Source: Psammoneis japonica | Taxonomy: Eukaryota | NCBI GenBank assembly: GCA_008632985.1 | Contig: QPGO01000110.1 | Span: forward strand, 186,001 to 250,000 | DNA: 64,000 bases | Reading direction: 5' to 3' | Shown here: positions 1 to 64,000 of the stretch, piece after piece | Numbering within the stretch: the first letter of the stretch is position 1 | Layout of the letters: every line of letters begins with the position of its first letter | The notes under the pieces: generated by a model | What the model saw: the letters and a program-made list of their open reading frames with translations, nothing else | Told to the model about the DNA's origin: nothing | The model's database searches: none | Program-made: the position numbers and the translations under genes

Positions 1-2600
1 CTGCTGCCTTCCGCTCTTTGGCACTTTGAAGCAATTTCTGGTTCTTCCACTCAGCAGCACTTTTATCCTCCAGAGCATCTGGCAAATCAGCTTCTGTGTA
101 AAATGCCTGGCGGTGTTGAGCAACCTTCAAACATTTTGGTTTGACTGGGCTTGGCAGCAGCGCATTGTCACAGACTGGCTGTTCAAGGTCTTCTCCCCCA
201 AATGACTCCCTTTCTTCTTCATGCCCACTCACATTGATGGCTGTTGCAACAAAAAGAAGAGCTTCAACGCCAAGGATGGGCAGGGAAAGCTTCAGCATGA
301 GGCAGGAGCAGCAGTCAACAATGCCATGGAGCATTTCTCTAAAACTGATTTGTTGGTGCAATTTCAGCATGCACTGTGCAGACGTGTGCGCAGATGCTGC
401 CACTGCATGGGAATGAAAAGCATCAGAGCTGAAATCAAAAATTGTTTGATGGACAGACCAACAAAACTGCATGATCGTGTGCATTCATGGCACCAAAAAG
501 CCATGTGTTAAAACTGCTCAGTTCTGGACAAACACATGCAATGCCATTGTGCCAACTTTCGTCTCCTCACTGATTCTTGCACGGTGAGAACCTTGGGCAT
601 TTTCAACATGCTGTGCAACCTCTCAACTCCAAAGCGAGGAATGTGCAAACAGGCCCACAACAAATTGTCAGCTTTTTTGCATGTCAGAAGCTGTGGGCTC
701 TGTGGGTGCAACTCTGCCTTTCTTGGAGGTTTGGGCTCTTTTGCAGGGTCCAGTCTGCACCTGCCTCTCCTCAACACCCTGACTTTGAAGCTGTTTGATT
801 TGTCTTTTGAGGAAAAAAGAAACCCAAGGCTGCGCCTTTTACAGAGCCGGCGTGCTCATTGACTGTGTTTCTTTCCTTGAGTTTTGTTGTTTTCATGTGA
901 TGAACACATGCTCTCTCATCTGTTGTTCCAGGCATCTGACATTTGTCAATTGGTCACCAGTGGTTTTGCACTTTCTCCCATGAACCATTGTGGCTGTGAA
1001 GAGCAGAATCTGCTCCGACTGGATGATGCTCTGTTTGGCCTTTTTGGAGGCACATGTTTGCATCAGCCTTGAGTGATGCAACAACAACATGGCCACTTTT
1101 TTCTCCATGAAATCTGGCAATGTTGGAGCATCCCCAGAAGCTGAAATCAGCCCAGTTTCCTCTTCTTTGTTTTGGTGCAATGCCTGCACTCACTCCTCAC
1201 AATCTTCTGAAAGCACACATTTCCAAGTGAGTGCACATCAATCTTCTGGTCAATCACACTGATGTTTTGGAATGTTTCTTGTTCCCAGTCATTGTTGGTG
1301 ACAGCTGTGCTTCTATCTCATCATGTGCCCAACGTGAAAGCCAGCACTTGGCTGGAGCTGGCCTTGCAATCTCACACACTGGTGCTTGGCAGTGTCAGAG
1401 TGGACAAACACTGAGCACTTGGCTCTGCCAAGACTCTGTGAATGCCTGAAAAAACTCTCTGCTCATTTGCACTTTGGCACAAAGCTGTTTGCTTCACAAC
1501 TCACAACACAGCCTTTTGCACAATTGCAGAGACTTCCATGGGTGGCAAACTCACACAAGGAAGCAGCTCTGCACACGCCACATGTGTCTGTTTGCATCCT
1601 TGACTTGGCTTTGAAAGTGGCAGCTGTTGAGCTTCCCCCATTTGTGTCAAAGAGTTTTCAACACCCACACTGTGTTGTCCCAACAAGCTTCAAAGCCCCT
1701 GACATCCTGCGCCACACTCGAGCCAACCAACCATGCACTGCTGCCTTGCTGCAGTTTGAGCCCATTGTCTTGTGAATGCTGTCACACATTGCATGGAACA
1801 AACTTTGCCAGCTGGACATTTGTGCACATTCTTGGTCAACCACGAGTGCTGCCTTGGGCCCACTTTTTTGATGCTGCCTTTGGGGCAGAGCATCAATGCC
1901 AAGGGTTTTGTCTTGCCCCATCATGTGGTGGTCATCCCAGTTGTTGCAAGGTTGTGATGTCTTGCCCCCCATTGCTGCCAGCAGCATTTTTGGATGATTG
2001 TCATCCATGCCTGCCAGTGTTGTCCATCTTGTGCACCATTTGCTCTGTCCAAATGATGCCTTCTCATCTCTGCTGTCACAGAAAATCATTGGCAAAATTT
2101 TGTTTCCGTCATTTTGCATGTTCTCCCCATGAAGTGAAGACGTGGGTTGGCACAGTCATCTCCTCTCCCCTCAGCTGCTGCTGGCTCTCTCTTTCTCTCT
2201 CCAGCTGGAAAGAAAGAAGTTTGCTTTCAGCCAAGAATGTTCAGCAATGTGCAGACAGTCACACTGTGGCATTGGTGATCCAAAGATGGCATCAATGAGC
2301 ACAAATGAGTGAAGTCCCGTGCTCGGTCAGTGCAGAAATCTGAGTGAACCCTTTCAGTCAGCAAAACCACAGCATGCTGCAGCGCTTGGTGCAAAATTAC
2401 GTGTGCTTCACCATGTTAAAAAATGGAAACCACGGTGAAAGCACCAAGGAAAGAGACAATCTGTTGTCTGCCCTGTTCAACACTGGGGCGTGCCGGTGTC
2501 TTGACTGTGCTAACTGATTGAACAGACATGTTTGACAACACGCAATGAACTTCCACCAAAGGAATCTGCTTCACCACGGGTGGTCATTTAGAGCCTCGTG
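1..2600. repeat. Decayed transposon-derived block, TpA/CpG-depleted, family unassigned
   Basis: Almost no TA and few CG dinucleotides; only short Cys/His-rich Tyr-free ORFs; right boundary approximate (TA reappears at about 2.7 kb). Confidence 0.7.
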
Positions 2601-3039
2601 GAGCATCTCTGGTGTTGATTGCCAGCGATTTGCGAGGCAATTTGGTGAGCGATTCACTGCACTTTGCCATGGTGAAACAAGGATTGTCCAAAATTTTCGA
2701 TTTAACATCTCTGCTGGCGAAAGTTTCGAGTTACATACAGTAATCTTTGCATGTGTCGAGCAACAGTTGTGTGACGTTAAACCACTTGCATTGCTCATGT
2801 GGACGTTCTCCACCCCTCAAACTTTTCACCCCGTGCTTTCACCACGTGATTATGATTTGTGTGGACTGGATTTAAACGTATTTTATGTACGGCATGCTGT
2901 GGTTTGGCCTTTTTCTGAAAACTGAAAGGGTTTGCACTCGTCGATCGTCGCATCGGGTCCGCTCATCTCGGCTCTCGGCTCTCGCTCGGAACAATGAACC
3001 TCACACGCAGCAGCAAAAAGCAACTTTGAAAATCCCACC

Positions 3040-3517: not shown

Positions 3518-5002
3518 TCATTCTACCTTTGGTACTTTGTTCCGGAGCTTTGGGGCTCCCTTCTGCAACTTTTCTAATTGCTCCTCGAGATAATCTGCAA
3601 TCTGCAAGGCACTTGCTCTCCACTCCGGATCCAACACTAGGGACATGTGCATGGCAGTTTTAAGAGCGACAAACGCCGCGTCGTCATTTCGCTTCAAGTT
3701 ATCCGGCAGCTTTGGAATATCTCCAATCAGGGCATGTCCCAGAGCATCCCTTTCTCCTACTCCCTCGTATCTTTGTCCGTTCGTCAACAGCAAGTAAAAA
3801 ATGTTACCAAGAGCAAAAATATCTACCTTTTCGTCGATCAAATTCCATTCTTCTCGGAATTCTTCCGGAGCACGGAGCTATAAGTTACAATCAAATGACA
3901 ATAGTTAGTGACGAGGAGATACTGAAAGGCACTCTCGAGTTCGGGTTACATTGGAAAGCAGAGGGACCTACCACATGTGCAAGCTCCTTCTTTTTTGATT
4001 TACAGCTCCGATGCCGCTTCTTGTCCCAACCAAGCATAAAGCCTTGGTCCAAGCCACCCAATTGGTATTGTCCGTTCACAAACACGAAGCTCTCTTCGTT
4101 AACATTGTAATGCACGAACGGCGAATATTCCGAGCCACCGAGAGTGTGAACGTCAGCGAGGCCACGTGAAATCTGAGCAGCAGCACGTAATCGTCCTGTT
4201 CGGTCGAGTTTCTTGTAGCTGTCCTTGAGAGACTCTTTCTTTTCTAAAATAGCGGGCTCATGAAATGATGAAAACCCACAGAGACCCTGCACTGTCGTCT
4301 TAACCACGTTCGGCGAGGCTGAAGTTTTCTCTTCAATGATAGTAGCATCGATTTGACGGACCATATCATTTTTCGCAAATGGACTGGTGATCTTATGTGT
4401 CTTTAGAACCCATTCAGTTGTATCTGCCCCCTGTAGAGCATAAATGTTGTGATCGCTATCGCTTGTGAATAGCTTCAGTCGATCCTGTTGCAGCTGTGAA
4501 AAACTCGCTTCATGGACATTGTTACAAACAGGGTAGAATTCTTTCTGCCACACATACATTGGGTCGCATTCATCTTCATACTTTATCTTTTCTTTGATCT
4601 TTGTTCGTTGCTTCTTATCATACAAGTAAAATCTTGTTTTGATCTGAGAGTCTTCTCTGACTAGTTCGATCGTCTCGACATGACCGTCTGGAAAAATTGA
4701 AACAGCAATTGGTTTGCTTTCTGTTCCTGAAGGGGGCGGAATGACTTTACTGACAGCATTTACTACCGCAAGTATGAAGACAAATGTTCCGAGTCTATGG
4801 GACAAGGGCCTGTTCTTCCAAGTCGCAGCACGAGGCGCCTCCCGTCGTGCTTGTAGATTGGCATGGCCGCGGCATTCCTGCGTTCCAGCTGATAGCGACG
4901 TTTGACGCTTCTGCTACTTGTGCCTCTCATTTCACGTACTCGAGAAAGCCCTTCCCAGTCCGTTTCCTCCTCAAACCCCACAAGATGACGAAAAGCCGCC
5001 AT
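3518..5002 (-). CDS. Membrane-anchored protein kinase-like (probable pseudokinase); intron 3878-3971; 5' end uncertain
   Basis: ORFs 3891-4805 and 3518-3841 join via GTAGGT...TAG to give HV|LRAPEE...EKVDIFALGNIFY. Catalytic motifs are degenerate (VHYNV, LGGL). The upstream ATG at 5002 is in another frame (frameshift or unseen intron). Confidence 0.75.
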
Positions 5003-5392
5003 GATGAATGCCACGTAGAACGGAACAGAAGTGTTTCGCCCAATCGATTTGAAAAATTGAAATGCGCACATGTGTTGTTTTTTGATACTCCCACAACACT
5101 ATCTGAGTTTGTGGGTTTCCAATGTTTCATACATATAAAACATTTAAGGCATGCGCAAAACGAACGGCATGTCGGACAGAACACGATGGCCCATTTGTGA
5201 CGAAAACGGAATCTTGCTGATCTTTTTCTAAAACAAGTAGGACCTCATACAAAGCCTATGTGCGTAAAACGCTGTACTATTTTATCGTACAAATCCCAGC
5301 TGTCCGCATTTAGGGCGCCAAACTTTCCCCCCGCAAGAGAGCCTGCCACTAACTAGACCAAGTGCTCGCAAGAGCCGCAACTGCGCCACACC

Positions 5393-5788
5393 TCACTCAT
5401 CACGGTCGCTGTTGCCATCGGACGTCTCGTCTTCAGGTCCATCGCACCCGCGGCAAAATCCGCCTGGGACAGGCCATGAGTCCTTGATGCCGCCCTCAAC
5501 ACACCATGGAAGACGTTTGCGGTTGTTCCAGCCTCGTCCACGATGTCCATTGACAAGAACAGAAGCTCTGCGACAGAGGAGCGCTTTGGCTTCGCGATTC
5601 TCATGGCAGACTACGCGTTTTTCTCCTGTTCCCCGGGTTTCGGCGAACAGCTCGAACTCTTCACGATGAAGCTCCCACAGACAAGGCTCCTGTTTGCAGT
5701 GGCTGCAAATGGTCGCTTCTTTTTCGATCTTGACCTTCTTCAGCAACGGAGGAGAGTTGGAGTGCTCGTCAGATTCGGAGGAAGACAT
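5393..5788 (-). CDS. Small accessory ORF of the Kolobok-like element (CxxC-x3-C motif; RKRLPWCVEGGI), apparently mutated at TA sites
   Basis: Divergent from the transposase inside the TTAA-bounded element; no Tyr; LCRR and GFCRGC are likely Tyr>Cys changes. Confidence 0.55.
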   Translation of the reverse strand: MSSSESDEHSNSPPLLKKVKIEKEATICSHCKQEPCLWELHREEFELFAETRGTGEKRVVCHENREAKALLCRRASVLVNGHRGRGWNNRKRLPWCVEGGIKDSWPVPGGFCRGCDGPEDETSDGNSDRDE

Positions 5789-6167
5789 GTTTGTTGTCTG
5801 CGGCCGTCGACACTTGATTTTTTGTGGGGAAGTGGCCATGTCTCTCAAATGCCATTGGGTGTCCACGGAGAATGCTCAACAATTTCGATTCTCTGCAATT
5901 GCTGTTCCCACAGCACAATTGTTTTCTGTTGACCGTTGGAACTTTCCGTCAGTGCTGACGACAGAGACAGTGGCGATTTGTTGCTCTGCATGGAGATGAG
6001 AACAATGACATTGCAGCAATGTAAAAAACAAGAGTTCCAGTGTTGTGACAATGAAACACATTCACAAATTTTGCCAAGTGTTGGACGTCACTCGTGGACG
6101 TTCATTTTTGAATGCGGGCTGGCGCTCATTCTTTGGACACGACGAATGAGAACGCCATGTCGAGAAA

Positions 6168-8807
6168 ATGGCCCAACGAGCAGACCAGTCTATCCCTCCT
6201 CTGGTCGCCACATGCCGATCCAAGAGAAAATCAGGCGCTGAAAGCTTCACTCCACCGACACGTAAAGAGGTGGAAGCTCTCCCGAAAGGAAAGAAGAAAA
6301 CCGAGTCATTGAAGTTGTCATCCGGAGGCAGCTGTGGCAAGCTCAGCAAGTCGAATGCTGTCGACTCTGATGCGTGGAATTTTCAGCCGAAGAAGCAGAG
6401 GATAACAGCGGAATCTGTATTTGATTATGAAGATAAGGAAAATAGCAGTCCCGCACAAACCGCCATGAACACTACAGCAGTGTCGTCGTCAAGCTCCCAA
6501 ATGGGGGCCTCTGCCGACAATGCACCAAACAGCAGTCCCGCACAAACTGCCTTGAATGCCACTGTTCCAGCATCAACCTCCCCATCTGTCTCCGCCGCTT
6601 CTGCAAAAAAGAAGGAATATGCACGTGCATCCATCGGCTTGGTTCACCTTCCAACCTTAAAAGCACAGATGGAGGCGAATCTTAGATGCGATCAGTGTCG
6701 CTCTCGAGTGGTGCTTACCAGCACGACCATTGGAATTGCATCTGAGATTCAGATACAATGTTCGTCTAAGTCTTGCAGAAAGACAACACTCATCAGCCCC
6801 GCCACGCGCACTACAGAACAAATAAATCCCTCAAGGAATGGGAGGGACAGGCATCTCCTCAACCACCAGCTCATTATTGCTTTCCTAGCGACTGGATCGG
6901 GAGGCCGAGATGCTTCGAAACTCCTTGGACTGCTGGACCTGCCGAACGCAAAGAGCATGGGAAAGAATACCTTTTCGCACATTGAGAAGAAGATAAGTCC
7001 AGTATTGCAAGCAATTGGGGATTCATCTCTAGATTATGCTCTATACAATGAAGTCCGTGCCACTCTGGAAGAAACGCCGCAGGAAGGTGTCAGTTTTGAA
7101 GCGTGGAAATACGCATATGAGAATTGCACACAGCTTGACACTTACCCAAAAATCACCGCTTCTATTGATATGGGCTGGCAAGCTCGTCATAGCGGACGCC
7201 GATACGCCTCTCTCTCTGGACATGCCGCAGTTATAGGTGCGCTGACTCGTAAGCCATGCATCATGACAGTTCTGTGCAAGCAATGTAACATTTGCATGAG
7301 ATACTCAGACGGTGCCTCTCCCACGCATGAGTGCCCTATGAATTACGAAGGTCATTCCAAGTCTATGGAGGCATACGGTGCAGTTTTGTTGTGTGAGAAG
7401 ATACATGCCGAAAAGAAAGTAACGCTGGCTCTAATCGTCGCAGACGACGACTCTACCATGCGAGCTCAGCTCAAATGGCCTATGAAGGACAAGATAGACA
7501 ATGGAGACCTCCAGGAATGGCCTAAGGTACAAAATTCACAAGGCAAAATGGTGAAGGTAAAATGCACAGGAAAATTGAAGCATGGAGTCCCAGAACCTAC
7601 CTTCAACTCGGATCCATCGCATCGCAAACGGATTTTTTCGGATCGCTTGTACGACCTGAAGAGAAAGGGAAAGAAAGTGACGTCGATTACTGATTGTGAT
7701 ATTGTGCGGCTGGTTAAGAATTTTGGATATATGCGAACTCAGCTCCTCGACTTACCTGAAACAGAATGGGAGAATGCGGCCAAAGCCGTTCTAGAGCACC
7801 ACTTCGATAATCATCAGTATTGCGGGACGTGGTGCAAGCGCAAAAATGAAAGCGACGAGGAAAGAGCCAAAACATCCAAGCGGTATCGCAGCAAAGACAT
7901 TGATCCCTACCTGTACAAGCAGTTACAAGACGTGTTAGCAGAGTTCATCAGTTTGGATAGGCTGCGAGATATCGTGCACAAGAACAACACGCAGGCAAAC
8001 GAAGCGCTCAATCAGTTGATTACCTGGTACGCGCCAAAGAACCGGACGTACAGCCGATCTATGTCACTCAACAATCGTATCTCCATGGCTGTTGGTATTA
8101 CAGTTCATGGATGCCATGACTATTTTTGCCAACTGTATGGACAGCTGGGCATTCCTATGCCAGACGGTACGAAAGAATGGTTAGAAACCGTTGACAACGA
8201 CAGAGAGACAAGGCTAGCGAAGCAGAAGCTGGTTGTGAACAAGATCAAGCGGAAAAAGCAGTATTATGAAACACTGAAAAAACACCAAGCTGCATTCGAG
8301 AAGTCCAAGCATGACGGCGACTATGGTAGAGGCATGGGCTTTGCAAAACGTGATGTCGCAGAAGACGCCGACGAAACCAACTCACCCGACGCAACGACGA
8401 CAGCAAAGAAGGCAAGCAAGAAAATAACCAAGGTGTGTAAGTTCTGCCAAGGTACTGGTCACCTTACATGGAGATCAAGCAAGTGTCTGCGTCATGCAGA
8501 GTACCTCAAGTCAAAAGGCGGCGGCCTTGTTGTAAAAGTTGTGGCCATGGACGACATCAACGAGACTGCTGAGGCGTCGCCTGATAATGCGGATGAGTTG
8601 GATGAGTGCGGATACGACGCGATGAGCGAGAAAATCTTGGCACGTGATGACGTCGGCGAAACGAGCAAGAATCAGGAATCCGTCGAAATAGATTTTTCGG
8701 ATTCCGATGAGTGCGATTTGCTCGACAAATTGCCGTTCGAAGCCGACGATGACGATGACACGTTTGAGACGCTCCTAGAAAAAGACTTCGCAATTGGCAC
8801 TTTATAG
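6168..8807 (+). CDS. Intact DDE transposase, 879 aa
   Basis: N-terminal CxxC...C-x4-C zinc ribbon; SIDMGWQAR..Y.SLSGH, CKQCNIC..HEC..NYEGHSKSME, ADDDS, DPSH, EHHFDNH..CG.WC, TQANEALN motifs; C-terminal CxxC-H-C knuckle. Confidence 0.9.
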   Translation: MAQRADQSIPPLVATCRSKRKSGAESFTPPTRKEVEALPKGKKKTESLKLSSGGSCGKLSKSNAVDSDAWNFQPKKQRITAESVFDYEDKENSSPAQTAMNTTAVSSSSSQMGASADNAPNSSPAQTALNATVPASTSPSVSAASAKKKEYARASIGLVHLPTLKAQMEANLRCDQCRSRVVLTSTTIGIASEIQIQCSSKSCRKTTLISPATRTTEQINPSRNGRDRHLLNHQLIIAFLATGSGGRDASKLLGLLDLPNAKSMGKNTFSHIEKKISPVLQAIGDSSLDYALYNEVRATLEETPQEGVSFEAWKYAYENCTQLDTYPKITASIDMGWQARHSGRRYASLSGHAAVIGALTRKPCIMTVLCKQCNICMRYSDGASPTHECPMNYEGHSKSMEAYGAVLLCEKIHAEKKVTLALIVADDDSTMRAQLKWPMKDKIDNGDLQEWPKVQNSQGKMVKVKCTGKLKHGVPEPTFNSDPSHRKRIFSDRLYDLKRKGKKVTSITDCDIVRLVKNFGYMRTQLLDLPETEWENAAKAVLEHHFDNHQYCGTWCKRKNESDEERAKTSKRYRSKDIDPYLYKQLQDVLAEFISLDRLRDIVHKNNTQANEALNQLITWYAPKNRTYSRSMSLNNRISMAVGITVHGCHDYFCQLYGQLGIPMPDGTKEWLETVDNDRETRLAKQKLVVNKIKRKKQYYETLKKHQAAFEKSKHDGDYGRGMGFAKRDVAEDADETNSPDATTTAKKASKKITKVCKFCQGTGHLTWRSSKCLRHAEYLKSKGGGLVVKVVAMDDINETAEASPDNADELDECGYDAMSEKILARDDVGETSKNQESVEIDFSDSDECDLLDKLPFEADDDDDTFETLLEKDFAIGTL

Positions 8808-9823
8808 CGTTATCAATAATACTCGTAAGAACACGAATAGGTAAAGAAAGTCCCCCGGACGAACTCATAATCGTTCGATAGGTCAACGCATAAAATGATG
8901 GTCGGAAAACAGAGCTCGGTATCGGCAGGACGTTTTGCTTTCGAACGGAGGGTGCTGGCGGGGACTTTCATGACTGAATACGTTCTTAAACTTAATAAAA
9001 TAAATGTCTATAAAGACAAAAGACTCTTGAACCCGTCGCTGACATGACAAACTTTACGACAACACACCACCGTCATGTCGCCGATTTTAGCGATGATGCG
9101 TGTAGCGCGCACGAAGTGTCCAGTACAAAAAAAAATCAGAAAGTCAAATCGTCTTGCCATCCATCAGCTCGTTGTGCCATTGCCTTAAAATAGTGTCGTA
9201 CGGTGTGGGTAAATTTTAATTTTTACGAGCTTGAATTTGCACAGGTGCTCGGAGAGGCGGGCGCCACGCATTTACATGGATTTTGCACCAGAAGTCTTGT
9301 TGTTTGGCAGACCAAATGAACCCTTCTGGGACGGGACACACAAGCAGCAGCACAACGTGCTTTTCTTGAGCTGCTGTGTGTCGTTGACAAGTTTTGCATG
9401 GGTTGGAGCTGTGAGCACCCACACACAACAAGCGGAGGCACTGCTGCTTGTTTCTTTTCATGTCATTTGTCAAGCACAGGCAACAAATGAAGCTGGAGCA
9501 GGGCACACGCCAGCAGCTTCCACGCACATCAGAGTGCACGAAATGGCAAAAAAGTGCAGATTTGCGTGATGACAATTCATTGGAACATTGCAAAAAATCA
9601 TTGTCACACGATGACAGGCCAACCTCTGGTTGCAAGTTTGGCACACCAACACTGCAGTGGCTTGTCAAGAATTGTGCGTGCTGTTTTTCACTGTGCCCAC
9701 ATCGCCATTTCTGCCTCCACCTTGTTGCCACATGCCAGTGTGTGATTGCGTTGCCGCACAAACCTTGGTTTGTCAATTTTTGCAAACACCATTTTAAACA
9801 AGAAAAGCATTTCATCGGTCAAG

Positions 9824-11156
9824 TCAATCCCTTGTTGCGTCTGCAGTGCAATGACCGAGTGCTGTGTCAACTGTGTGCACATTTTCTTGCTGCAACTCTC
9901 TCAAACTAAGCTGATGATCATCATTGGACTCGTCTCCATCAGACTCGTCTCCATCGGACTCGCCTCCATCGGACTCGTCTCCTCCATCATTCGTTTTGCC
10001 TTTTGCGCCTTCCTCCTGCTCATCGTCGTTGCCATTGTCGTCCCTGCTGCTCCCCACCATTGGGCTGTTCACTGCCTTCACCTTCTCCACATCACTGGTC
10101 GGTGCTGTCTTCTTCTTCTTTTTTGCTTCTCCGGACTTCTCACACTCACTTTTCTTGATCTCCGCATGCCACTTTTCAAACTCCTTGCCCTCCTTGGAGT
10201 CTCTGTCTTTCGTCACCTCTTTGCACAAATCGTTGAACTGAATGATTCCGTCATCTCCCCAAGACACTCGTTGTTTCTTTGGCTTCGTGCGCCGAGGGGC
10301 AGGCCTTGTTTCTTCGGGCTCCATTTCCTCACCCAATTCTTCCACCGCCTCCTCCTTGTTCCTGCATGCCCACACCTGCTGACATTCTCCATGGCCAATG
10401 GCGCCAAAGCTTCGTCACCTGCCACAAACAACTGTGAGACCTGTGCGTTCCCAGTTTTGACGGCGCTGCTCCATGCCCGCTTTTGCTTGGTTTGAGGCAG
10501 GATGTGATCACAGAACCACTTGCGTGCCTGCTTGTTTCTTCATTTGCCGCCGGCGACAGTGTCTGGGCCAAACGGATCCCATGTCAGCACAAACGTGATG
10601 TCATTCTCTTCATTCTTGTCATGGCTGACTTTTTCCTGCTTTGCTTTTTCCTCCTGACTGCCGCCTTGAGTTTCTTTTCTTTTTCCTTTCCCTCCTCCTC
10701 AGTGACAACGCCCACACAGATGAAGCATCACCGTCATCTTCTTGTGAGACACACGCAACTCTCGAGTCACACACACTGGTCACTTGGCTTGCGGGCCATT
10801 GCCTCCACCCCAATGGCCGAACACACCGTGTTTCTGCAATTGTTGATTTGCCTTTTTACCGCCTTTTTTGCCCATTCCTCCCAAGTTCCTGACCAATTTG
10901 AAGTGTCCATGTTGCCACCAGCAATCTGTTTCTTCACAAACATTGAGACGCTCCCATTGCTTGCCAATTCTGATGGGCTGAGAAACTTCACCTGTGGAAA
11001 GAGATCATTTCCAGCCACCTTCTCCACTTCTGATTTCAATGCACCATGCGCTGCCTGCACACCTGTTGTCTTCAACACTGCCTGAAGTCTTGGGCTCATT
11101 GGCTTGACAGTCTCATTTTTCTTTCTCTTCTTTGCTGGTGGTGCTGGAGACGACAT
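9824..11156 (-). pseudogene. Decayed accessory gene divergent from the Plavaka-like transposase
   Basis: ORF pieces 10767-11156 and 9824-10375 with WGDDGIIQFNDLCKEVTKDR (GWxxxGIxxFNxLxxxVxxDR type); acidic tail. Confidence 0.55.
9927..9987. repeat. 15-bp tandem repeat (gactcgtctccatcg, about 4 copies) encoding DGDES on the minus strand
   Basis: Directly visible. Confidence 0.85.
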
Positions 11157-11608
11157 CTTGATCTTTGCACAGCAACAATGAGAGGAGTGTCACTGTTCGA
11201 CAGTGCAACCGTCGTTTGGGTCGTGTTGAGACAGCCAGCCACTCCATTTTTCTCTGTGACATTGAACAAATTGTTGTCAGCAACATTGAAATTTGAAAAT
11301 GTGTTTGTGTGCAACAATGAACAGTCCAACTCACTTTTTGACATGGCTGTCATTGCATTTCAACGGAGACAATGTCCTGCATTTTGACAGTGAATAAAAA
11401 GCACAACATTCATTGTAAATGCCAGACAACAAATCAAAATGCAGATGCGTCACACCTGTGAGAATCATCCAAATCTGGAAGACAATGCAATGTTTGCCAT
11501 TTTCCCGCCATTTTTTGCGTGTTGTTCTTCTTTTCCCTTGTCATCCACAAGACAAGGGCGACGAGTGTGAGTCTTGATGAAGGCCCTGTCAACATTGTCT
11601 GATCAACA

Positions 11609-14730: not shown

Positions 14731-14745
14731 GCGCGCATCAATCTG

Positions 14746-17090: not shown

Positions 17091-17104
17091 CAATGTCAGC
17101 ACAA

Positions 17105-42854: not shown

Positions 42855-43032
42855 GGTTGTGGCCTTGCGCTGTGCCACAGACCTCTGCACCAAGCTTTCC
42901 ATTTTGACCCATTTGTTTTGTGAGCCGATCGAGCGAGCCTCATTGTCTGATCAGACAACTTTTTATCTCACTTTCCCGGCATTTTTTACGCTCGTAGAAA
43001 CGTGCCAGATTTCTGTGCGTGCATGACCAAAA

Positions 43033-49713: not shown

Positions 49714-50109
49714 GACGCGTTCCAGACGTAGGTGGGAATCCGTGTGACATTGGGCCCGTAGACTTCTACGTGCGAGCTCCGTAGTAAAATTATACGGTAA
49801 TTAAAATGTCAATGATCGCCAACAGAAAATGAGGCAATTTTGCGAACGCACAAACTCGCACATGATTGAAGTACATCATTTTTTACTTAGCCAGTTACAT
49901 TCTTCAGACATTGAAGAATGTAACTGGAGCATTATTGTTTCTATAAATTTGTTATATAAAACGTCTGGGGCTTCGCAAAACAGCGAGTCTGGACAATTTT
50001 TTTTAAATATCACACGTAGAAATCTACGTACGAAACATACGACGGATGATAAAAATTATTGTTGTCACACGTCAGTACTACGAGCTCCCACCTAGGGCTG
50101 GAACGCGTC
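49714..50109. mobile_element. 396-bp MITE with 24-bp TIRs and 4-bp TSD GGCT
   Basis: gacgcgttccagacgtaggtggga vs reverse complement of the right end gacgcgttccagccctaggtggga (22/24); GGCT at 49710-49713 and 50110-50113; AT-rich interior with TA intact. Confidence 0.92.
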
Positions 50110-51134: not shown

Positions 51135-51330
51135 TGTCAGCCTGCTCATCTACATGTTGCACGATGGACAGACTGGATGCGGATGATGGCTGGACCATTT
51201 AGATGGACGAGCAGATCTCTCTGAGATCTGCTTCTCACTTTCTCATCCACCAGTGCTCGTGTTGTCACAGTCCTGGCACTTCAGGGAGTCTTTCACACCT
51301 CTGTCATCATTGACCTTCGGCATTCTGTCA
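51135..51330 (+). repeat. 3' LTR
   Basis: Preceded by a polypurine tract and followed by TSD CTTTG. Confidence 0.97.
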
Positions 51331-53884: not shown

Positions 53885-56800
53885 ATGAGCCAAGTCAGTC
53901 AAGAAGAACCACCGGAGGCTCGTCATTTACCGAGAGCTTCGTCCCCATTAATCTCAGAACTGACAAAGTTGAACTTGAATGAATTGCGACTGTACGGAAG
54001 ATGCAATGAACTCGAAGAGCTTCAAGTTATTTATGGCAAGGTCGATAATAACGCAGCCAATGCGGTATTTGTTTGCGGAAATTCGGGTGTAGGAAAAACG
54101 ACGCTGGTTGAAACATTTCTAAGGGGTTTGTCATCATCATCGTCGTCCTCGAGTCGTAAGCGGAGAAGGCAGTACTCTGTCTCGGCGAAGTTTGATCAAC
54201 ACGGGGTAGGTAAACCGTACTCAACGTTAGCGGTGGCCTTCAACAGTGTATGCGACCAAATTCTTTTAGACTCCGACTCGAAAGAAGAAATAATAAAGGA
54301 AATTCGCATGACAGTTGGATCCGAAGCAAAAGTATTGAAGGATGTCATTCCTCAGCTTCATGAGTTACTTGGTGGAGAGGATCAAAGCCCCTATGAAACG
54401 ACGGAGGAAAGCGCATCAATGGAACGAGGAAGTACTGCGGAGCAGGCATTCAACAGAATAGCATTTGCCTTTCGAGCCTTTCTTAGGGCTGTTTGCTCTC
54501 ATATGGTTCACCCTCTTGTTATATTCATTGATGATCTTCAATGGGCTGATTCATCGTCGCTCAAGCTGGTAGAGTCCATGCTTACAGATTCGAAGTCCAA
54601 CAACTTGCTCGTTATCGGTGCGTACAGAGACAATGAAGTTAGTCATGACCACAAATTGTCCAAGATGATAGAGCAAGTGCAAGAACAAAGATCAATTTAC
54701 AATATTCAAGTGAACAATTTCGAAGTTGCTACTGTCAATGAGCTGCTTACAAACGTGCTCAAGGAGGAGGATGCGAACGCGACCATGCCGCTTGCCGAAC
54801 TTGTACACCATCGTACCGACGGAAATATTTTTTTCGTGCTGCAATTCCTCGATCTTCTGTTAGAAAAGAGGTTGCTTCAATATTCTCTTGTCTCTTACAA
54901 GTGGACTTGGGATCTCGCCGGTATCAGAGAGAAAACCAGTATTTCGGACAATGTGGTGGAACTGGTTGCTAGTAGATTGAAAAGATTGGACGAAAATGTA
55001 CAGTATGTTCTTCGAATTGCAGCCTGCCTTTGGTCGACGTTCGACGTGACCTTTTTGGAACCGGTTCTGTGCCGATTAGAAGAGGGAACGGCCAGGTTTG
55101 GAAGCAAGGAGGATGTCATTCGAATTCTCGACTTGGCGGTTCAAGAGGATCTGGTTGAAAGGGAATCGGATTTGCGATATCGATTTTCTCATGATCGGAT
55201 TCAACAGGGAGCGTACTCTTCGCTTCCACAAGGCCGAGAACGAGATCGCATGCACATACGGATTGGCGATATTGTATTGAAACTAAGCAAAGAATACAGT
55301 GGATCGAAGGAGTGGTTGATGTTTATTGCCGCCCATCAATTGAACATTGGAGCAGCTTGCATTATTGACCCAACCAAACAAGTGGAACTGGCTGAATTGA
55401 ATCTAGAGGTGGCTAAGATCGCCATTTCCTTATCTGCCTTTGTTCCAGCAGCAGAGTACCTCCAGTCGGGGATCGATATTTTGGCGACTCAGCAAGATTC
55501 TTGGGACAAACACTACAGCTTGAGCTTACAGCTCCATACTGCATCGGCAAAATTGGAGTTTTGCAATGGAAATGTCGAACATGGCAAAAATGTAGTCAAC
55601 GAGGTATTGGCCAATGCCCATTGTTTACGAGACAAGCTCCCAGTGTACTTTGACTTAATTGATGCTCTTCTCCATAAGGAGCGCAAGTATGATGAGTCAA
55701 TGAAACTTGGACTTGACGTATTGTCGCAATTAGGTGAGAATCTCCCTAAGAAAGTGTCGACATTGCGTATCGTGCTGGCTCTTCTCAAAACGAAGCGAAT
55801 AGTACGGAAACTGAGCAACGATGACCTTAAACAACTTCCCATGATGAAAGATGAACACAAGATCGCTGCGATGAATGTGCTGAACTTTTTGGTTATTTGT
55901 GCATTTTGGGCGGAAACGCCAGAATGGTTTGCTTTTTCAATTCTGCGCATGATGCAGCTTACTCTCTGCTATGGGGTCACCAACGCTTCTTCGATTGCTT
56001 TTGCGAATTTTGCCGTACTCTTGTGTTCACTTGGTGATTTCAAAGAGGCGTATCGTCTTGGAAAGGTTGCGCTGGATCTTGTTGAGAGACTTCAGGCAAA
56101 GGATTGCATAGGGCGTGTGCTTTTCTTGATGTATAGCATTATAAACCCCTGGCAGAAGCCTCTCCACGACTCCCTTGAACCTCTCTTACAATCTCACAGA
56201 ATTGGAATGGAAAGTGGAGATATCGAGACGGGCGTTAGCAGTTGTGGAAGCTACGGGCTTGCATATCTATTCTGCGGTTTGCCGCTGGTCGTAAGTACTA
56301 TCGCCATTCTCTTCTGTTCTATCGGCTTTGTTTTAGGAACTGATTCACACTTACCAACCAATCATACCGTGTTGTATGAAATTAGCCTCTTGAGAAGGAT
56401 TTTCGTTCTCACATTGAGCTCATGAGGGAATACAAACAGGCAACTGCATTGCCTGGAAATCTTCTTACTTGGCAGTTCATCCTGAATCTTATGGGAGAGT
56501 GTGAAAATCCTTTGGTGTTGACAGGAGAGGCCATGAATCAGGATACGTTCCTCGACAGCACGAAAGAAAAAGATGCTTCATGGGGGATGTACTGGTTGCA
56601 TCGACTTCAGCTTGCATATTACTTTGGCGATATAGACTTGGCCCTAGATATGGCCGAGAAATTCCGGAAAAATTGTAAGAACGTGCAGTGTCACTTTATG
56701 ATGCATGTTTTTACCTTCTTTGAGGGCCTTTTTTTTCTGGAGATGGTGCGAAGAACCAAAAAGCGCAAGTACAAGACTCGCGCTCAACGTAGTATCAAGA

Positions 56801-57351: not shown

Positions 57352-59739
57352 GTCGAACTAAGTTAAACCGTCCACTCGACAAATTCATACAGCCTTTTTT
57401 CCATCCGGGGCATCTAACGTCCTGCAACGCTGAAACGTACCAAGCGCTCAGCCATCATGCCTTGCCGGAGGGCGAACCACCTCACGGGCATGCCGGCACA
57501 CTGTTGTCAGAGTGCAGCCACAAGTGCAATTACATCAGAGAAATGTGCAGGTGGTCAATCCCAACGATGCAGCGCATTTGGCGTGCATTTGTCTCTCGAG
57601 CATTGCAACAGCTTTTTGCAATGAAAGCAAGTTGTGGTGTTCTTTTAAAAAGGCTTGTGCTGGCATGAGGATTGAGCAAGGAAAAGTTCTGCAAGGACAC
57701 AGCTCTTTGCTCACAGTGCCATGCAAACAAGAGAAAGGACTCTGGGCACATTTCAAAGAGGAGGTCAGGAGCACTTGTGTGTTGGGTCATCTGGTCATGC
57801 ACCAGGCATGGACAAGCTCACTGCAGGCTCTGTGGCCATCACTGCCACCTCCATTGCTGCGGTTGACAAACTGGGAGCATCAGAAGGGCAAAATGGCATT
57901 GGAGTCAGGGGCTCAAAGAAATCACGTTTAGCCAGAAACAGCAACAATGTCCCAAGAATTCATGGGCGTGCCACATTTGAGATTTCAGTTGTCAACGAGG
58001 GGCAACTCTTGAGCACACTCACAGCTTTTGCTGACTCAATTCCAGTTTCAGCCAATCAAGCCCTTGAAGTCAGTCAAACACCAACTTTGAAAAATGGCAG
58101 CTTGTCCAGTGCTGCTGCTGTGTCAAGCCTGCCTGCAACTGGCAACATCTGGCCCCAAGCGAAAGAGCTCCATGTGACATGGGCAGCAAAATTGTCAAGC
58201 AACGAACATGTGGGGACAATTGCCAACAAAAAAGAGGCAGTTTTGTGAGTGCATCTCCTCCTCCACACTTGAAGTGCATCATTTCCAGTTTGTCTGGGTG
58301 TGTTTTTCAAACACAGAAGAGCACGCCCAGCCTGTGTTGGCTTTCGCACAAATGAAAAAAATGGGAAGAGCCTTTGGCTTGGCAAAGCAAAGAGCATGAA
58401 GCAGTTTTGCAGCAGACCACACACAGAAAGGCATGTGCATGACATGTGACATGGTCCAAATGACCCTTGTGTGTCACAGTGCTTCAGCACGAGGCCCCAC
58501 CTGGAGCCAGGGCATGTCTCTGGCACTTCTTGAAAACTGGTGGTGGGTGCAGCTTGCCTGCAGGAGCCAGACAGCCCTCACAGCAGGGGCTTCACACAAG
58601 ATTTGCAAGGTGTTTGGGGGCCCTCAGAGTCATTGCAAAATGGTGTGGGAGGGCTGTGAGAAAAGTGGATCTGGGAAAAAAGCTTGTGCTGCATCAGAGC
58701 ATGCAACACAGTGATCGGCACCTCCTTTCTCATGGTGATTTTTGTTCCTTTTATGGATGTCATTTTTGTGGTTTCAAACCTCATCAGTTGTGTGGCGGGC
58801 AATGACATGTCAACTGTGATGGATGAGCATTTTTGTGCTGTGGGATTTGACCCCCTCTCCCTTTGAAGACAACTCATTTCACTGTGAAACAGGGGCACAT
58901 TTTCCCTGTGAGAGTGCCCACCCTCTGTCCCTGCAAAACCTGCAAATTAAAATCATTTGCGCTGCTCCACAAACACTCCACTTTGTTGTTTGCATTGAAG
59001 CCAAATGGCGCTGATGGAGACAACACCCTGGAGTTTGCACCAGCAGCTGCAGCTTGCTTTCTTGAAGTGCCGCTGCTGGCAGCCACCTTGTTCACCACCA
59101 AAAAGTTCAGAGCACGTTGTGAGAGTGCAGCGTGGATGAGCCAACACTGCCAACAGGAACGGCAATGTAGACTCACTGGTGCATCTGGTGCCGCTGCTTC
59201 TGGAGCAGGTGAGTTTGCAGCAGGAGCTGCTGTTCCATGACTTGAAGTGCCGCTGCTCTGTTCCACCTCATTCATTGCCAAAAAGAGTGGAACATGTTGT
59301 GAGAGCACAGAAATGTGGCAACATGGACTCACCAGTGCATCCGACACTGCTGCTTCTGGAGCAGGCAAGTTTGCAGCAGAGAAGCACTGTTGCTCTGACC
59401 CACCTCATTCAGCACCAAAAAGCACAAAGCACATTGTGAGAGCACAAAACAGATGAGCTGACATGAGCTGCAACACACTCACTGGTGCATTGGTGTGTTT
59501 GGCAGCACCGCTGACTCCATGGACACCGGTGTGTTGTGCAAGACGTTGAGCACCCATGTGGTGCAAGATGTTGAGCACCCAGCTCCACCCCTGCAACTCA
59601 AAGACAAAACACAGAAAGAAAGCATGTGAGCAAGCAAAAAACATCTTAAGTGCCACAGAACGCACTTGCTGGAACAGCCATGGGAACAAGCACCACCTGC
59701 ATGTGCACCACACTGCACAAGGTGCTGCTGCACAAATGA

Positions 59740-60210
59740 CAAAGTCATGTGGCAATGACCAAGTTCGCCCCACACCTCCCATGCTGTGGATGGTTCATCA
59801 ACGACATGTTTAGAGCATGTGCCAGAAACAGCAGAGAGACTTGGAAAGCCTTTAAAAATGAGCCTGACAACTCAGGCAACCTCCAATGGGTTGCCTCCCC
59901 ACTCTCCAACTCTGCATTGTTTCTGGATCTGGACGTGGAAATTGGAGAAGATGGATGTGATGCAAGCGAACATGTCAAAAACCAATGAAGCTCTTTTTGT
60001 GCATGCCTTTTTTGAAGAGTGTCACATGTGGCAAAGAACTTTTTCATGCGTGTGATTCTGAGAGCTGCAGGAACAAGCACCGCCTCCAGTCTTGCTGGAT
60101 CTGGACATGGAAATTTGAGAAGATGGATGTGTTGTCAGTGAATGCATCAAAACACCAATGAACCTCTTTTTGCACATGCCTTGTTTTTGAAGAGTGTCAT
60201 TTGTGGCAAC
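59740..60210 (+). mobile_element. Penelope-like reverse transcriptase fragment, with a local duplication (59923-60034 / 60095-60209)
   Basis: FINDMF..W.AFK..LQW..LSNS..FLDLDVEI, then a KPMxLFLxMP-like segment (KPMNLYLYIP-type thumb motif). Confidence 0.55.
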
Positions 60211-60864
60211 TCATGATGATTCTGGATGCAAAACTCTGACATGCATGATTGCACCAATGCTGCAGAAAAGAAAGTTTGTGATGTGCATGCACATGACAAC
60301 ATGCCAGCAGCTCAGCATTCTGGATGCGGCAGATTCATGACAGCACACTTGCAATCACGAAACTCAAGCTGCACCCAAATCAAAACCCATCTTGGCCAAC
60401 CAGAAGGACAGCAGGTCTCACCATGCATTGAGCTGCTGTCATTGGCCAATGGGGCAAAGTCTTTCACCACCATGGCCGGTTGTCAATTTGCAGATTTGTG
60501 ACCACATGTAGAACCCACATGAATCACAACAGCGCACACTCTCACTTTTTGACTTTTGGGGAGAGGGTGGGCTGTTGTGAAGTGTGTGGAAAATTGCACA
60601 CGTGAAAAAAATGCTGAAAACACCGTAGACCAAGGGGCTGCAAAAATCTGGGGAAGCATGAAGAGGAATTTTTAAAATGGAGGGTGGGTCACATGCATGT
60701 GTGAAGCAAACTGCACACATGCAAACACATGCACATGAGTTGAGGAAGGCCAAAGTGGAGGCCAAGTTCAAACTGATGACCATCAAAAGGAAACCAAACC
60801 ATGCATCACAAAACACAGATGTCAGCTCCAACCAAGTTCAACATTGCATGCATTTGATTGAAGC

Positions 60865-61885
60865 TTGTGTGCTTTTCTGCACAAGCACCTGCTGGCAGCC
60901 CCTTCTTGTGTTTCTGCATGTGCTCTCATGCTGATGTCACCCTTTTCAGATTGCATTTTGACAGGTCCCCCTGCAACCTTTTGGATCCTTCTGCCATTGG
61001 TGCACCCTTGTCTCTCCATGATGTGCAACAATTTTCAGTGGAAACAGACTGGCATGGATGCCTTGTGGCTTGCATGCTTGTTGTCTCATTTGGCAATTTT
61101 TTGTGGATTCGGCGCAGTTTCCACACAGAATCCAGTGCAAATTCCACGTGCTTCTGGAACATCCACCAATGATCAGCACGTCTTTGATGCGATCAACTTC
61201 CTTCCACACCCAAAAGCTCCCAACAATTTCTTTTGCTCCTGCTGGCTGCACAAGTTCTTCACCTCATGTGGCAACAGTGCTGTCCCTGTTGTGGTGCCTG
61301 CGAGTGTTTGTTTGGACAAACCATCTGCATTGCCTGACGACCATCCATTTGCTGTGCTGATTTGCATTTCTGCGCATGACTCAGTGTCAATTCTACGTGA
61401 GAACAATGTTTCTTCCAACGACCTTCTTGTCATGTCACCAAGGCTTCCTGTTTCATCCTTGCAAGTCCTGAACACCCCCTTTTCCATTTGCTGGCCTGCC
61501 ATGATTGCTGTTCTGAGCAGCGAACTGCATGTTTTTGTTCTGGTGCATGCAATTTTGAAATTCAGCCAGTCTTTGTTGAAGACAAGACCCTCCCTCAGAA
61601 GCAAAGGTTTTCTCCCGGAGTTTGTGCTGACTTTGAATTCTCTGCTCAACACGATTGTCCTTTGCTGCAAGGGTTTGGGTGCATTGGGTCCCCTCTGAAA
61701 GAAAGCAACAACCTTGTTCTTGTGCAACTTCTCCTTGACCTCTTCTTCTGCACATCACTGCAAAGCGGCACGTTGACTGACTGGTTGCACAATCTTCTGC
61801 TGCTGCACCCCTTGCAGAGTGTGCTGGAAGTGTGGGTTGGCCAGCACCGGCGTTGCTGGGCAAAGGTGCAACAGCACTAAAAACT
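60865..61885 (+). repeat. Dispersed repeat, copy 2 of 32200-33230
   Basis: Colinear homology; many differences are TG/CA/CG/TA exchanges. Confidence 0.9.
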
Positions 61886-64000
61886 GGATGTCTCTTGTGT
61901 TTTTTGTTGAAGCTTGTGCAAGAAAAGCCAGTGAGATGTCAGATGAAATGCAAAAAAAACAACTGCAATTAAAAATTTTGCAAAGGAAAGCAGAGACCAC
62001 TGCATTGGGGCCTCTGACATGGCAGACTCCATGTGCTGACAATGTGTTCCAGCTCTCTAGCCAGGTGGGACCTTGCACTGCTGAACTGTGACATCAACAG
62101 TTTTTTGGATCATGTCGCACGTTGCACACGCACATTTTTATGTGTGATGTTCTGCCAAATTGTTTCATGCTCCCTGTTTTGCAAAGCCAAAGGCTTTCTG
62201 TTTTCAACATTTTTGAGAGAACAAAAATGCACTGGGTGCATTCTTTAATGTCTGTGAAACACACCCGGGCAAACTGTCAATGATGTGCTCCAAGTGTGAA
62301 GGAGGAGATGCGTTCGTAACACTGCCTCTTTTTCTGTTGGCAGTCATCATTTGCATTTTCATTGCTTGACAAATTTGCTGCGGAGCTCGCACGTAGAGCT
62401 CCATGGACCAAATGTCACACGGAGTCCCGCCTGAAGCTGGAACCTGTTTGACAAAGGCGGCCGGCTTGTCTGGTGCATTCTTGCCCACAGACACAACCTG
62501 TTTTGCACTGCACGGCCGAATTGCCGTGACACCTCCTGAGCCAGAATTTTGTCACCATGACAAAACCACGGCTGCTGGTGACATGCTCTTTTGTTGTGGT
62601 GACTGCTCAACAAGACGTTTGCTTTCCCTGACACCACTTGCACACTTGACAACAGAAACCAAGAGGTTTGCATCAAGCAAGTCACATTCCTTGTTGTGCA
62701 CTTTCCACGGGCTCAGGAAGCATCAGTGCTGATGCTGTTTTTTTCTCTTCAGCTCCCATCATGGCACAACCCAACACATCTCACTTGAAGATGGTCATCT
62801 CCATTGCCATCAACTGGAGCCTGCCACCACTGGCATGTCTGCCAGCTTTGGTGCTCCTCTTCCTGTGGGAGTGACAACAGACAAATCATCCACGCCCTCT
62901 CCCAACCGCAAGCAAGATCCTCAGAGGAACCATCACAATGGTGTCTGACTTTGCCCTTGCATCTGCCATGTGAAAAAGAAGAATGCAAACAGAGTGTGAA
63001 GGACTTCATTGATGCTGCTGATCAAAAGAGATGTGTTGTCATCATTGCCTGTCTTGTGCCAACAACAGGAGGCCACGTGGAAGTGGCAATGTCAAGAGCA
63101 ACAACATGAGGGAGGTGTCCTGCATCCTGCTGTCACCTGTTTTGGAATTCTTGTTCACCACCTGAATCTTCCGGCATTCATTGATGGAAAAACATTGATT
63201 TGGGACAGACACCATGCAAGTCTGTGCTGCTCTTGATCGCTTGCTGTGCAGCGAGAAAACTGATTCAAGCGGTGGCCTTTTGATGACATGGTCAGCTCCA
63301 ACTGGTTTTGCATTTGAGCACTTGGGTCTCTTTTTGGACAATGCCCTGAGAATCGACTGTGGAAGGCAGTTGACCCAAACAGCATTTTGTTTGCCAATGA
63401 GCCACACCAGTGTTGCATGACATTGGCAGTTGTGCTGTTGTAAGATTGCACACTGAAGCTGCTCCAGTCAGCTGCAAACACTCTGTCAATGACAACGGCG
63501 GGGACCCAAGACAACCGACATCATGTTCCAGCTCTGTGACAGAGCAGCCCCAATCAAACACTGCTGAAATCAACTCTTGATTCTTGTTGCCAAACTCTTC
63601 CAGATGAGAAGCCCTGTCATGTGACCCCCAACAAAGCAAAGGACAACCACAATCTCAATTTGGATCATGACAAATGTCACCGCAACAATTTCCAAGCTTC
63701 ATCTCATGCTGCTGCATTGTCAACCAGGCATTCAAACAATGTGGAATGGGAGTTTTTTGCCACCTCCATCAGTTGCGACAGATTCAACAATGCACGCTGA
63801 AACTTCAAATGGGGGCTGAGGCAACACAAACCCCGAGACAATGGTTTGAAGACTCTGCCTCCTTTTTGCAACTTTGTCTCTTGCTGCAAGTTTTCTGACT
63901 TTCTCACGAGCTTCCTTCTCTGCTTCACCAGCTTCCTCGACTGCTGCAAAATTTTCCTTGACTTTCTCATGAACTTCCTTTTCTGCTTCCAGCATTTCTT

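Follow-up and report, generated by a model that had tools for sequence, protein, structure and literature searches.

We analysed 64,000 nucleotides of the Psammoneis japonica assembly GCA_008632985.1 (contig QPGO01000110.1, positions 186,001 to 250,000 of the forward strand, hereafter the window) and found that its mobile elements have lost nearly all of their TpA dinucleotides, whereas the genes between them have not. These elements, among them a Copia retrotransposon and a Plavaka-like DNA transposon, are probably subject to a DNA-level hypermutation of TpA into TpG or CpA, i.e., to an adenine-directed counterpart of the repeat-induced point mutation (RIP) of fungi. Taken alone, the existence of a genuine, element-targeted TpA hypermutation is very likely. 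The changes took place after integration, on DNA and on both strands, at TpA, within the borders of the elements and copy by copy; they are independent of CpG decay and prefer a TA followed by a pyrimidine (TAY). An initial annotation of the window had proposed A>G changes at TpA on both strands of mobile elements, distinct from CpG decay, and this is now supported by long terminal repeats (LTRs), outgroups and context spectra.

We delimited low-TA blocks by counting TA in 200-bp windows, and computed a per-kb observed/expected (o/e) profile of dinucleotides across the window. Seven blocks (Table 1, where 41401-49600 and 50201-53600 share one line) sum to 40.4 kb and contain 163 TA, whereas the other 23.6 kb contain 968; at the frequency of the latter, about 1,650 TA would be expected in the blocks. 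TA makes up 0.40% of the dinucleotides in the blocks and 4.10% in the remainder (o/e 0.06 vs 0.58). The blocks have lost 94% of the expected TA overall, and 100% in some 1-kb windows. Per kb, TA o/e ranged from 0.00 to 0.2 within the blocks and from 0.5 to 0.8 across the intervening genes, and the blocks had values of 1.5-2.3 for TG and CA and of 0.09-0.8 for CG. TG and CA were about equally frequent in each of the seven blocks. Their joint share is 5.7 points higher in the blocks (20.6% vs 14.9%), to be compared with 6.1 points less of TA and CG (3.7 for TA and 2.4 for CG, which has a share of 2.93% vs 5.34% and a block o/e of 0.48). Hence, the loss of CpG covers about 2.4 of the 5.7-point rise, and none of the TA loss. 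The GC content is 0.493 in the blocks and 0.466 in the genes, and AA and TT are not depleted in the blocks (AA o/e 1.24). The TA-poor, CG-reduced blocks beside TA-normal genes, and the TA-specific context with retained runs of A, had both been described correctly in the initial annotation; its list of blocks lacked the 1-kb patch at 5401-6400 and the TA-normal island (49601-50200) that interrupts the block at 41.4-53.7 kb.

The block borders are sharp (100-500 bp wide). For example, consecutive TA are found at 5354 and 5612, at 9273 and 9795, and at 29337, 29475 and 30049. Blocks and genes were identified by Pfam and homology searches. The low-TA blocks match Copia, Plavaka-like and other element sequences, and the open reading frames (ORFs) between them (GT90, BTB/BACK, WDR6-like WD40, AAA_16 and Mutator-like) are intact, intron-free and of normal TA; the GT90, BTB, WD40 and AAA_16 host genes have TA o/e of 0.5-0.8 and 13-30 Tyr. 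In the interior of Copia and in the high-copy families, the TA o/e is 0.02-0.16 and the CG o/e 0.45-0.8, the latter at the level of intact relatives, whereas the relics around them have a CG o/e of 0.1-0.3. The relics of oldest appearance are the lowest in TA and CG alike. Since TA-depleted elements keep CG near that of intact relatives while the surrounding relics are CG-poor, the loss of TA is fast and early and that of CpG slow.

The Copia element is delimited by 196-bp LTRs with TG..CA ends (42659-42854 and 51135-51330) and by a perfect 5-bp target-site duplication (CTTTG, 42654-42658 and 51331-51335), and its domains follow the Copia order. The pol segments matched by tblastn (45527-47176, 48221-49606 and 50090-50950) are collinear and in the same frame, which is split by some 1 kb of inserted sequence (47177-48220) and by a small element with terminal inverted repeats (TIRs). 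The insert, placed at the junction of integrase and reverse transcriptase, is GC-rich (0.59) and TA-depleted, and an ORF overlapping it (46928-47659) has a weak match to the Ulp1 peptidase C48 (E 8e-4, below the curated cut-off).

The two LTRs show 20 differences over 196-197 positions, all in aligned pyrimidine-purine (YpR) dinucleotides: seven TG|CA doubles, two TA|TG-or-CA and four CG|TG. The comparison revealed no transitions outside YpR, no transversions and no gaps. LTRs are identical at integration and these now differ at TA-derived sites; the changes in Copia are therefore post-integration. Since the pair shows 20 YpR changes and nothing else, the loss of TA was far faster than background substitution. 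Self-BLAST of the window found seven repeat pairs, and recoding it into purines and pyrimidines lifted the identity of the LTRs from 89.8% to 100% and that of a 1-kb pair from 81.6% to 95.2%; the recoded search of the window gave few additional pairs over the shuffle level of about 66 bits. The 2:4 ratio of CG|CG to CG|TG in the LTRs leads us to expect about one double from CG and about six from TA. We dropped the doubles as proof of ancestral TA, since an ancestral CG yields the same pattern, and used outgroups instead.

In 17 columns, Tyr is present in at least 80% of 62 Copia relatives. The window reads Cys in seven of them, His in six, Phe in three, Ala in one and Tyr in none, while the other residues at conserved columns are retained in 58-100% of the cases (94-100% for Gly, Glu, Trp, His and Cys). 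Compared with a single relative (P0002), none of 47 Tyr is retained; 23 became Cys and 17 His. For example, RRSTTGCAC in the window aligns with RRSTTGYAF in a relative. The entire pol frame has three Tyr in 1574 residues and its stops are TGA in 14 out of 14 cases. We then scored the context of substitutions at 388 conserved columns, where the window deviates at 77. We found 14 A>G after T (plus two ambiguous) and 11 T>C before A, vs four A>G or T>C outside TpA. A further 13 changes (plus one ambiguous) were of the CpG type, one was a C>T outside CpG, 18 were transversions, and 13 columns had more than one nucleotide change. At least six of the seven Thr>Ala replacements belong to the class of A>G after T. 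A>G is thus enriched at TpA: the raw counts (25 vs 4) differ about 6-fold, and as about 15% of A's are preceded by T in normal sequence, the enrichment is roughly 35-fold. Both strands are affected, because TG and CA are about equal in all blocks and Tyr>Cys (7) is about as frequent as Tyr>His (6). CpG decay accounts for the R>H/C/W changes in Copia and for the CG|TG differences between LTRs.

Dinucleotide bias varies between genomes and between elements, and even the normal TA o/e is only 0.58 here, such that the elements might be natively TA-poor, by their own composition or because they came from a TA-avoiding donor, and never have mutated in this genome. Yet, among 75 metagenome loci of related Copia, TA o/e ranged from 0.16 to 0.81, and 74 of them were at 0.32 or more. 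Hence, the family is not natively TA-free: its relatives have a TA o/e of about 0.6 and keep their Tyr. Furthermore, the window copies are broken, with no stop other than TGA in the pol frame, and the differences between LTRs and between copies fall on TA-derived sites. Native TA poverty is, on these grounds, hardly credible.

Tyr is read as Cys or His in Copia and in the Plavaka-like frame, as the initial annotation had noted, and also in the ORF at 17105-19096(-), for which it had listed a single Tyr and which indeed has one in 663 residues. In the Plavaka-like frame, the 12 Tyr columns of the relatives read Cys (five), His (two), Tyr (one) or another residue (four). The frame scores 16 bits against PF18759 (curated cut-off 26.3), and a precomputed PF18759 domain is present in its closest relative, P0081 (E 3.9e-102, 40% identity). 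Another relative, the JGI protein P0084, has 1.6% Tyr and 4.8% Cys, vs 2.7-3.5% Tyr in the other three, and may itself come from a partly hit copy. The ORF at 17105-19096 has 125 relatives, and its six conserved Tyr columns read His, Cys and Phe (two each). A Pfam scan of seven of these relatives matched no family.

The window has three copies of a small element of about 400 bp, resembling miniature inverted-repeat transposable elements (MITEs), with 27-nt TIRs. The copy at 49711-50112 has normal TA (33 TA and 39 CG over 701 nt) and exactly fills the TA island at 49729-50093 in the saturated Copia, whereas 0 and 6 TA are left in those at 58.2 kb and 62.2 kb, respectively. Out of 27 TA of the normal copy compared with one depleted copy, eight read CA and eight TG there, and none remains; out of 30 compared with the other, ten read CA, ten TG and two are still TA. 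The normal copy either arrived after the hypermutation episode or evades recognition. As this TA-normal, CG-rich element sits inside Copia, residence in that domain is not sufficient for TA loss.

The small elements and the Plavaka-like frame also bear on whether RNA is the substrate. A>G with a preceding U or T is the neighbour preference of ADAR, a point also raised in the discussion of the preprint on Bigelowiella natans considered below, and the best-studied element in the window is a retrotransposon. Both points speak for an ADAR-like A-to-I hyper-editing of element transcripts, fixed by reverse transcription and reintegration. It would not explain why the two LTRs of a single insertion differ at TA-derived sites, which places the changes after integration, nor why the strands are equally affected and why DNA transposons and non-coding relics are hit too. 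The fact that DNA transposons are affected as well as a retroelement indicates a process acting on DNA. For the LTR differences and the DNA transposons, RNA editing is refuted; at most it may contribute in a minor way, and as a general explanation it is very improbable.

We found the same signature at partial levels outside the window. A metagenome scan retrieved a related Copia family of 42 copies (76-99% nucleotide identity), mostly from microbial-mat samples, which we scored against their majority consensus (5,977 columns, of which 248 TA). Transitions in TA context ranged from 2.7% (L036) to 30% (L041), whereas other transitions at A/T stayed at 3-6% for 33 of the 42, with up to 12% in the most diverged. 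Nine metagenome loci of related Copia (L041, L044, L059, L055, L043, L068, L075, L061 and L009) showed partial Tyr>Cys/His replacement and the TpA>TpG/CpA signature, while sister copies were untouched. These environmental copies imply that at least one further diatom, an uncultured one, undergoes the process. A>G after T reached 22.5% in six hit contigs vs 4.6% in 12 unhit ones. The corresponding values were 6.3% vs 5.3% after A, 7.3% vs 4.6% after C, and 3.3% vs 1.9% after G, i.e., a rise of at most 2.7 points in AA, CA and GA. C>T at CpG was the same in both groups (11.6% vs 11.7%). Since CpG changes are equal in hit and unhit contigs while TpA changes differ 5-fold, the TpA process is separate from CpG decay.

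The environmental copies also reveal how single sites are hit. In the hit contigs, the TA of the consensus are now TA (307), TG (157), CA (112) or CG (3). Runs tests on eight partly mutated contigs showed no strand-coordinated or tract-like clustering of TG and CA (P(runs <= observed) 0.33-0.93): TG and CA outcomes, as well as hit and unhit sites, are randomly interspersed along each copy. The hit rate of TA depended on the following base (27% for C, 25% for T, 16% for G and 15% for A), i.e., TAY was hit more than TA followed by a purine. The survival of TA in the window agrees with this preference in nine of ten contexts, e.g., the ratio of the frequency in low-TA blocks to the normal one is 0.39 for TTAA and 0.25 for CTAA/TTAG, vs 0.009 for ATAT and 0.004 for ATAC/GTAT.

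If TA were lost passively, by a context-dependent bias of silenced chromatin such as error-prone repair synthesis or a lesion at TpA, a long residence in heterochromatin would suffice and no dedicated enzyme would be needed. The low-TA blocks are depleted in CpG too, as methylated and silenced DNA would be, the relics that look oldest have the least TA and CG, and no enzyme was identified, no search for deaminases having been made. Against such a bias, the LTRs, with no changes but those at YpR, show that TA loss outpaces the background, the small element has normal TA and abundant CG within a saturated Copia, and in the environmental family CpG decay is equal in copies whose TpA changes differ 5-fold. 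The WA signature of polymerase eta would also strike AA, which is spared in the hit contigs as in the blocks of the window. We regard a passive bias as unlikely. Polymerase-eta-like repair was among the agents suggested in the initial annotation and is disfavoured, as AA is unaffected; another of them, a DNA adenine deaminase, is the one that we favour.

We propose that A:T pairs are changed to G:C where a T precedes the adenine, on whichever strand, so that TpA would become TpG or CpA. The targets would be the Copia retrotransposon, the Plavaka-like DNA transposon, the family of the ORF at 17105-19096, the small TIR elements and the older relics. The first hit would destroy the site for the second strand, i.e., once TA has become TG, the opposite adenine is preceded by C; loss of the 5' T required on the other strand would explain the rarity of TA to CG doubles. 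The agent might be a polynucleotide adenine deaminase (TadA/ADAT2-like or analogous), acting in the nucleus and guided to mobile DNA by the silencing machinery, which would convert adenine to hypoxanthine, to be copied as G. For this agent, and the chemistry that we infer for it, the chances seem to us about even.

Several observations weigh against hypermutation of this kind, or narrow it. The missing enzyme is the first. Some hit environmental contigs share a common pattern (L043, L055 and L059; L041 and L044), hence the independent hypermutation events are about five rather than eight. The TG|CA doubles of the LTRs may also stem from CG and alone do not prove an ancestral TA. The survival ratio of CTAG (0.057) is below the prediction of the TAY rule, so the +1 base does not fully order survival. 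The elements may be targeted by repetition or homology, as in RIP, but the Mutator-like ORF, the 400-bp TIR element in Copia and a short high-copy repeat at about 24.4-24.5 kb all retain their TA. The two short repeats, of about 400 bp (49.7-50.1 kb) and about 100-200 bp (24.4-24.5 kb), may have been spared because they lie below a length threshold or simply because they are young. Finally, the support for the bases comes from a single sample, possibly the source of the assembly, in the form of contigs rather than raw reads.

These contigs belong to public runs of that sample. In run X1, the summed word depth is 4,000-20,000 on 9.6-21.6 kb and about 60 on genes, which indicates that the families at 9.6-21.6 kb are high-copy. 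The region at 21.6-24.1 kb has single-copy depth and is TA-free and CG-poor. A 2,530-nt X1 contig of depth 62 spans the TA-free block at 21574-24103 with three differing letters, and X1 contigs on the adjoining genes have none. The contigs of run X2 cover nine of the 30 bins of the window, those of run X3 none. The assembly bases of the TA-free block are thus supported by a public-run contig, although, for the reasons just given, this falls short of independent proof. As the contigs are those of one sample, we considered an artefact of assembly, polishing or base-calling, e.g., a modified base read as G. However, the agreement across the TA-free block is close, with a symmetric modified base the reads of any one site would be a mixture of TG and CA instead of one fixed outcome, the block ends coincide with element borders, and the same signature is found in related elements from independent metagenome assemblies of other studies. 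Such an artefact is exceedingly improbable.

X1 contigs also join across 11595-14463, 15516-16997 and 9785-10503 (skips of 2867, 1480/1321 and 717 nt), hence other genomic copies lack these intervals. The first skip looks like internal-deletion derivatives of the Plavaka-like element, and 15.5-17.0 kb looks like an insertion, where TA depletion is partial (o/e 0.10-0.18).

The initial annotation had set these observations against fungal RIP, but a fungal host is not supported: host genes and Copia group with diatoms. The Copia relatives with names, among the matches listed, are from Nitzschia, Fistulifera and Cylindrotheca; two more are metagenome bins labelled Flammeovirgaceae bacterium, and the rest are ENA, Logan or JGI sequences. 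For the AAA_16 gene, both of the top feature-search clusters are commonest in Bacillariophyta. The named full-length relatives of the WD40 gene are from Attheya, a Thalass... MMETSP record, Seminavis robusta and the sister-group alga Triparma (best identity 36%). Intron-free ORFs of 850-1219 codons also fit diatoms better than agaricomycetes. Judging from these matches, the window stems from the nuclear genome of a diatom or of something very closely related, not from a fungus.

The initial annotation knew of no described system with this signature. One was reported in 2026 for the chlorarachniophyte Bigelowiella natans (Mettrop et al., bioRxiv 10.64898/2026.01.13.699255). That preprint describes a T/A>C/G hypermutation of integrated viral DNA at TpA only. 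Of the 231 mutations seen in two viral inserts of mutation-accumulation lines, 230 were A>G or T>C, all of them, according to the preprint, on TpA and yielding TpG or CpA, and a subset of the lines was affected. It reports 124 TpA-depleted clusters genome-wide, with a Rho(TpA) of 0.45 for an insert of nucleocytoplasmic large DNA viruses (NCLDV), and proposes adenine deamination by ADAT2, citing reports on amphioxus and trypanosome ADAT2. As described there, the two cases share the almost exclusive A>G/T>C at TpA, giving TpG or CpA by strand, the restriction to invading or foreign DNA with adjoining host genes spared, the uneven action (some lines there, some copies here) and the clusters depleted in TpA and enriched in CpA and TpG. 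They differ in the host (a rhizarian there, a stramenopile here), in the targets (giant-virus and virophage inserts vs transposons of both classes and relics), in the extent (Rho 0.45 in the NCLDV region vs o/e 0.06 over 40 kb and 0.00 locally) and in the approach, since mutations accumulated in real time there and are known here from sequence comparison alone. Our own comparisons established the preference for a +1 pyrimidine, the scarcity of TA>CG and the independence of CpG decay, none of which we found in the sections of the preprint considered here. A literature search outside subscription journals yielded the Bigelowiella preprint alone, and no TpA hypermutation described for diatoms or fungi.

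Other systems share parts of the pattern. RIP consists of C>T changes, predominantly at CpA, through which TpA arises and the DNA becomes AT-rich. The RIP of ascomycete fungi resembles the process described here in its dense post-integration transitions, confined to mobile or duplicated DNA, with sharp borders and destroyed frames. Its chemistry is the opposite one; here TpA is removed, GC is raised and the host is not a fungus. We ruled out RIP itself, as TA is lost and not gained and the blocks are GC-richer than the genes. A Rhizoctonia paper (PMC7884421), in the part covered here, deals with ordinary RIP indices, which differ from the TpA signature. Deamination of 5-methylcytosine, i.e., CpG decay, also makes TpG and CpA and acts in the same blocks, but it cannot remove TpA, and its environmental rate is equal in TpA-hit and unhit copies. 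APOBEC3 similarly exemplifies deaminase-type hypermutation as a defence against mobile DNA; it converts C to U on single-stranded cDNA in strand-coordinated clusters, whereas A>G is found here, with the strands randomly interspersed and DNA transposons included. ADAR and TadA/ADAT2-3 turn A into I, read as G, next to a 5' U or T. The natural target of TadA/ADAT is A34 preceded by U33 and, in tRNA-Arg(ACG), followed by C; this U33-A34-C35 resembles the T-A-Y preference. The substrate of these enzymes is RNA, and becomes DNA only once they are engineered, whereas integrated genomic DNA is affected here.

The features of the window are listed in Table 1. The Mutator-like ORF is intact and TA-normal directly beside a TA-free patch of 1 kb (5401-6400), and may represent a domesticated gene, an escaping element or a copy of very recent origin; a search for TIRs around it found weak pairs only (18-24 nt at 78-81%). 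A short repeat at 24380-24580, in or beside the GT90 ORF region, has a summed depth of about 3,900-13,800 in run X1. There is a 103-nt present/absent joint at 24405-24509, and many TA are retained at 24406-24505. At 20000-24200 and 57400-64000, many overlapping stop-free frames of 150-300 codons lie on both strands, because TAA and TAG are gone; gene finders could misread them as genes.

Table 1. Low-TA blocks, mobile elements and genes in the 64-kb window (positions in the window).
Feature	Position	Strand	Remarks
TA- and CG-depleted relic block	1-2600		TA o/e 0.02-0.2, CG 0.1-0.6
Low-TA patch, 1 kb	5401-6400		4 TA; directly upstream of the TA-normal Mutator-like ORF
Intact Mutator-like transposase ORF, 885 aa	6150-8807	+	PF20700, E 4e-41; normal TA; 26 Tyr
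Largest low-TA block	9401-24200		59 TA in 14.8 kb
Degenerate Plavaka-like DNA-transposase frame	11603-13873	+	1 internal TGA; 1 Tyr in 757 residues
663-aa ORF of a mobile-element family	17105-19096	-	1 Tyr
Host gene region Glyco_transf_90 (GT90)	23902-25779	+	Normal TA
Scaffold gap, 11 N	24105-24115		Exact border between TA-free block and GT90 gene region; sole gap in the window
Low-TA block	29401-33200		Includes repeat copy 32208-33250
Host BTB/BACK gene	33982-36558	-	Normal TA
Host WDR6-like WD40 gene	36828-40487	+	Normal TA
Low-TA block	41401-53600		CG-poor older relics (41.4-42.65 and 51.3-53.6 kb) and inserted Copia; minus island 49601-50200
Ty1/Copia LTR retrotransposon	42659-51330	+	LTRs, target-site duplication, domains
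Copia pol frame	45026-50950	+	gag-pre-integrase, integrase, RVT_2, RNase H; tblastn
Small MITE-like element, TA-normal, CG-rich	49711-50112	+	27-nt TIRs 49711-49737 and 50086-50112
Host AAA_16 ATPase gene	53873-56425	+	Normal TA
Low-TA, CG-poor block	57401-64000		23 TA in 6.6 kb; includes repeat copy 60870-61907
TA-free copy of the small MITE-like element	58183-58526	+	0 TA in 651 nt examined
TA-depleted copy of the small MITE-like element	62033-62448	-	

To our knowledge, targeted hypermutation as a genome defence is textbook matter only for cytosine (RIP, APOBEC). Its adenine-directed form has so far been the subject of a single report, the 2026 preprint on one alga. We add a TpA signature in another major lineage, the diatoms, in ordinary transposons of both classes and with a depletion near completion. 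Any mechanism will have to account for changes that are post-integration, made on both strands site by site, with a first hit that protects from a second, and specific to copies, as well as for the T-A-pyrimidine preference and the independence from CpG decay. The TA-free relics have practical consequences in diatom genomes: they escape similarity-based repeat annotation, bias composition-based analyses and, having no stops other than TGA, inflate open reading frames.

We tentatively suggest, as a possibility somewhat short of even, that diatoms and chlorarachniophytes have a DNA adenine deaminase, shared or separately evolved, with T-A-Y specificity and guided to newly integrated mobile or viral DNA. 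If so, a dedicated deaminase would erase all Tyr codons, TAA and TAG within a short time, and would amount to a natural adenine editor of chromosomal DNA. There are transformable laboratory species among diatoms, and if the process is common to them, the enzyme and its guidance would be directly testable. The process would then mirror RIP with adenine as its target, and would be widespread in the supergroup of stramenopiles, alveolates and Rhizaria (SAR) and visible in environmental diatom DNA.

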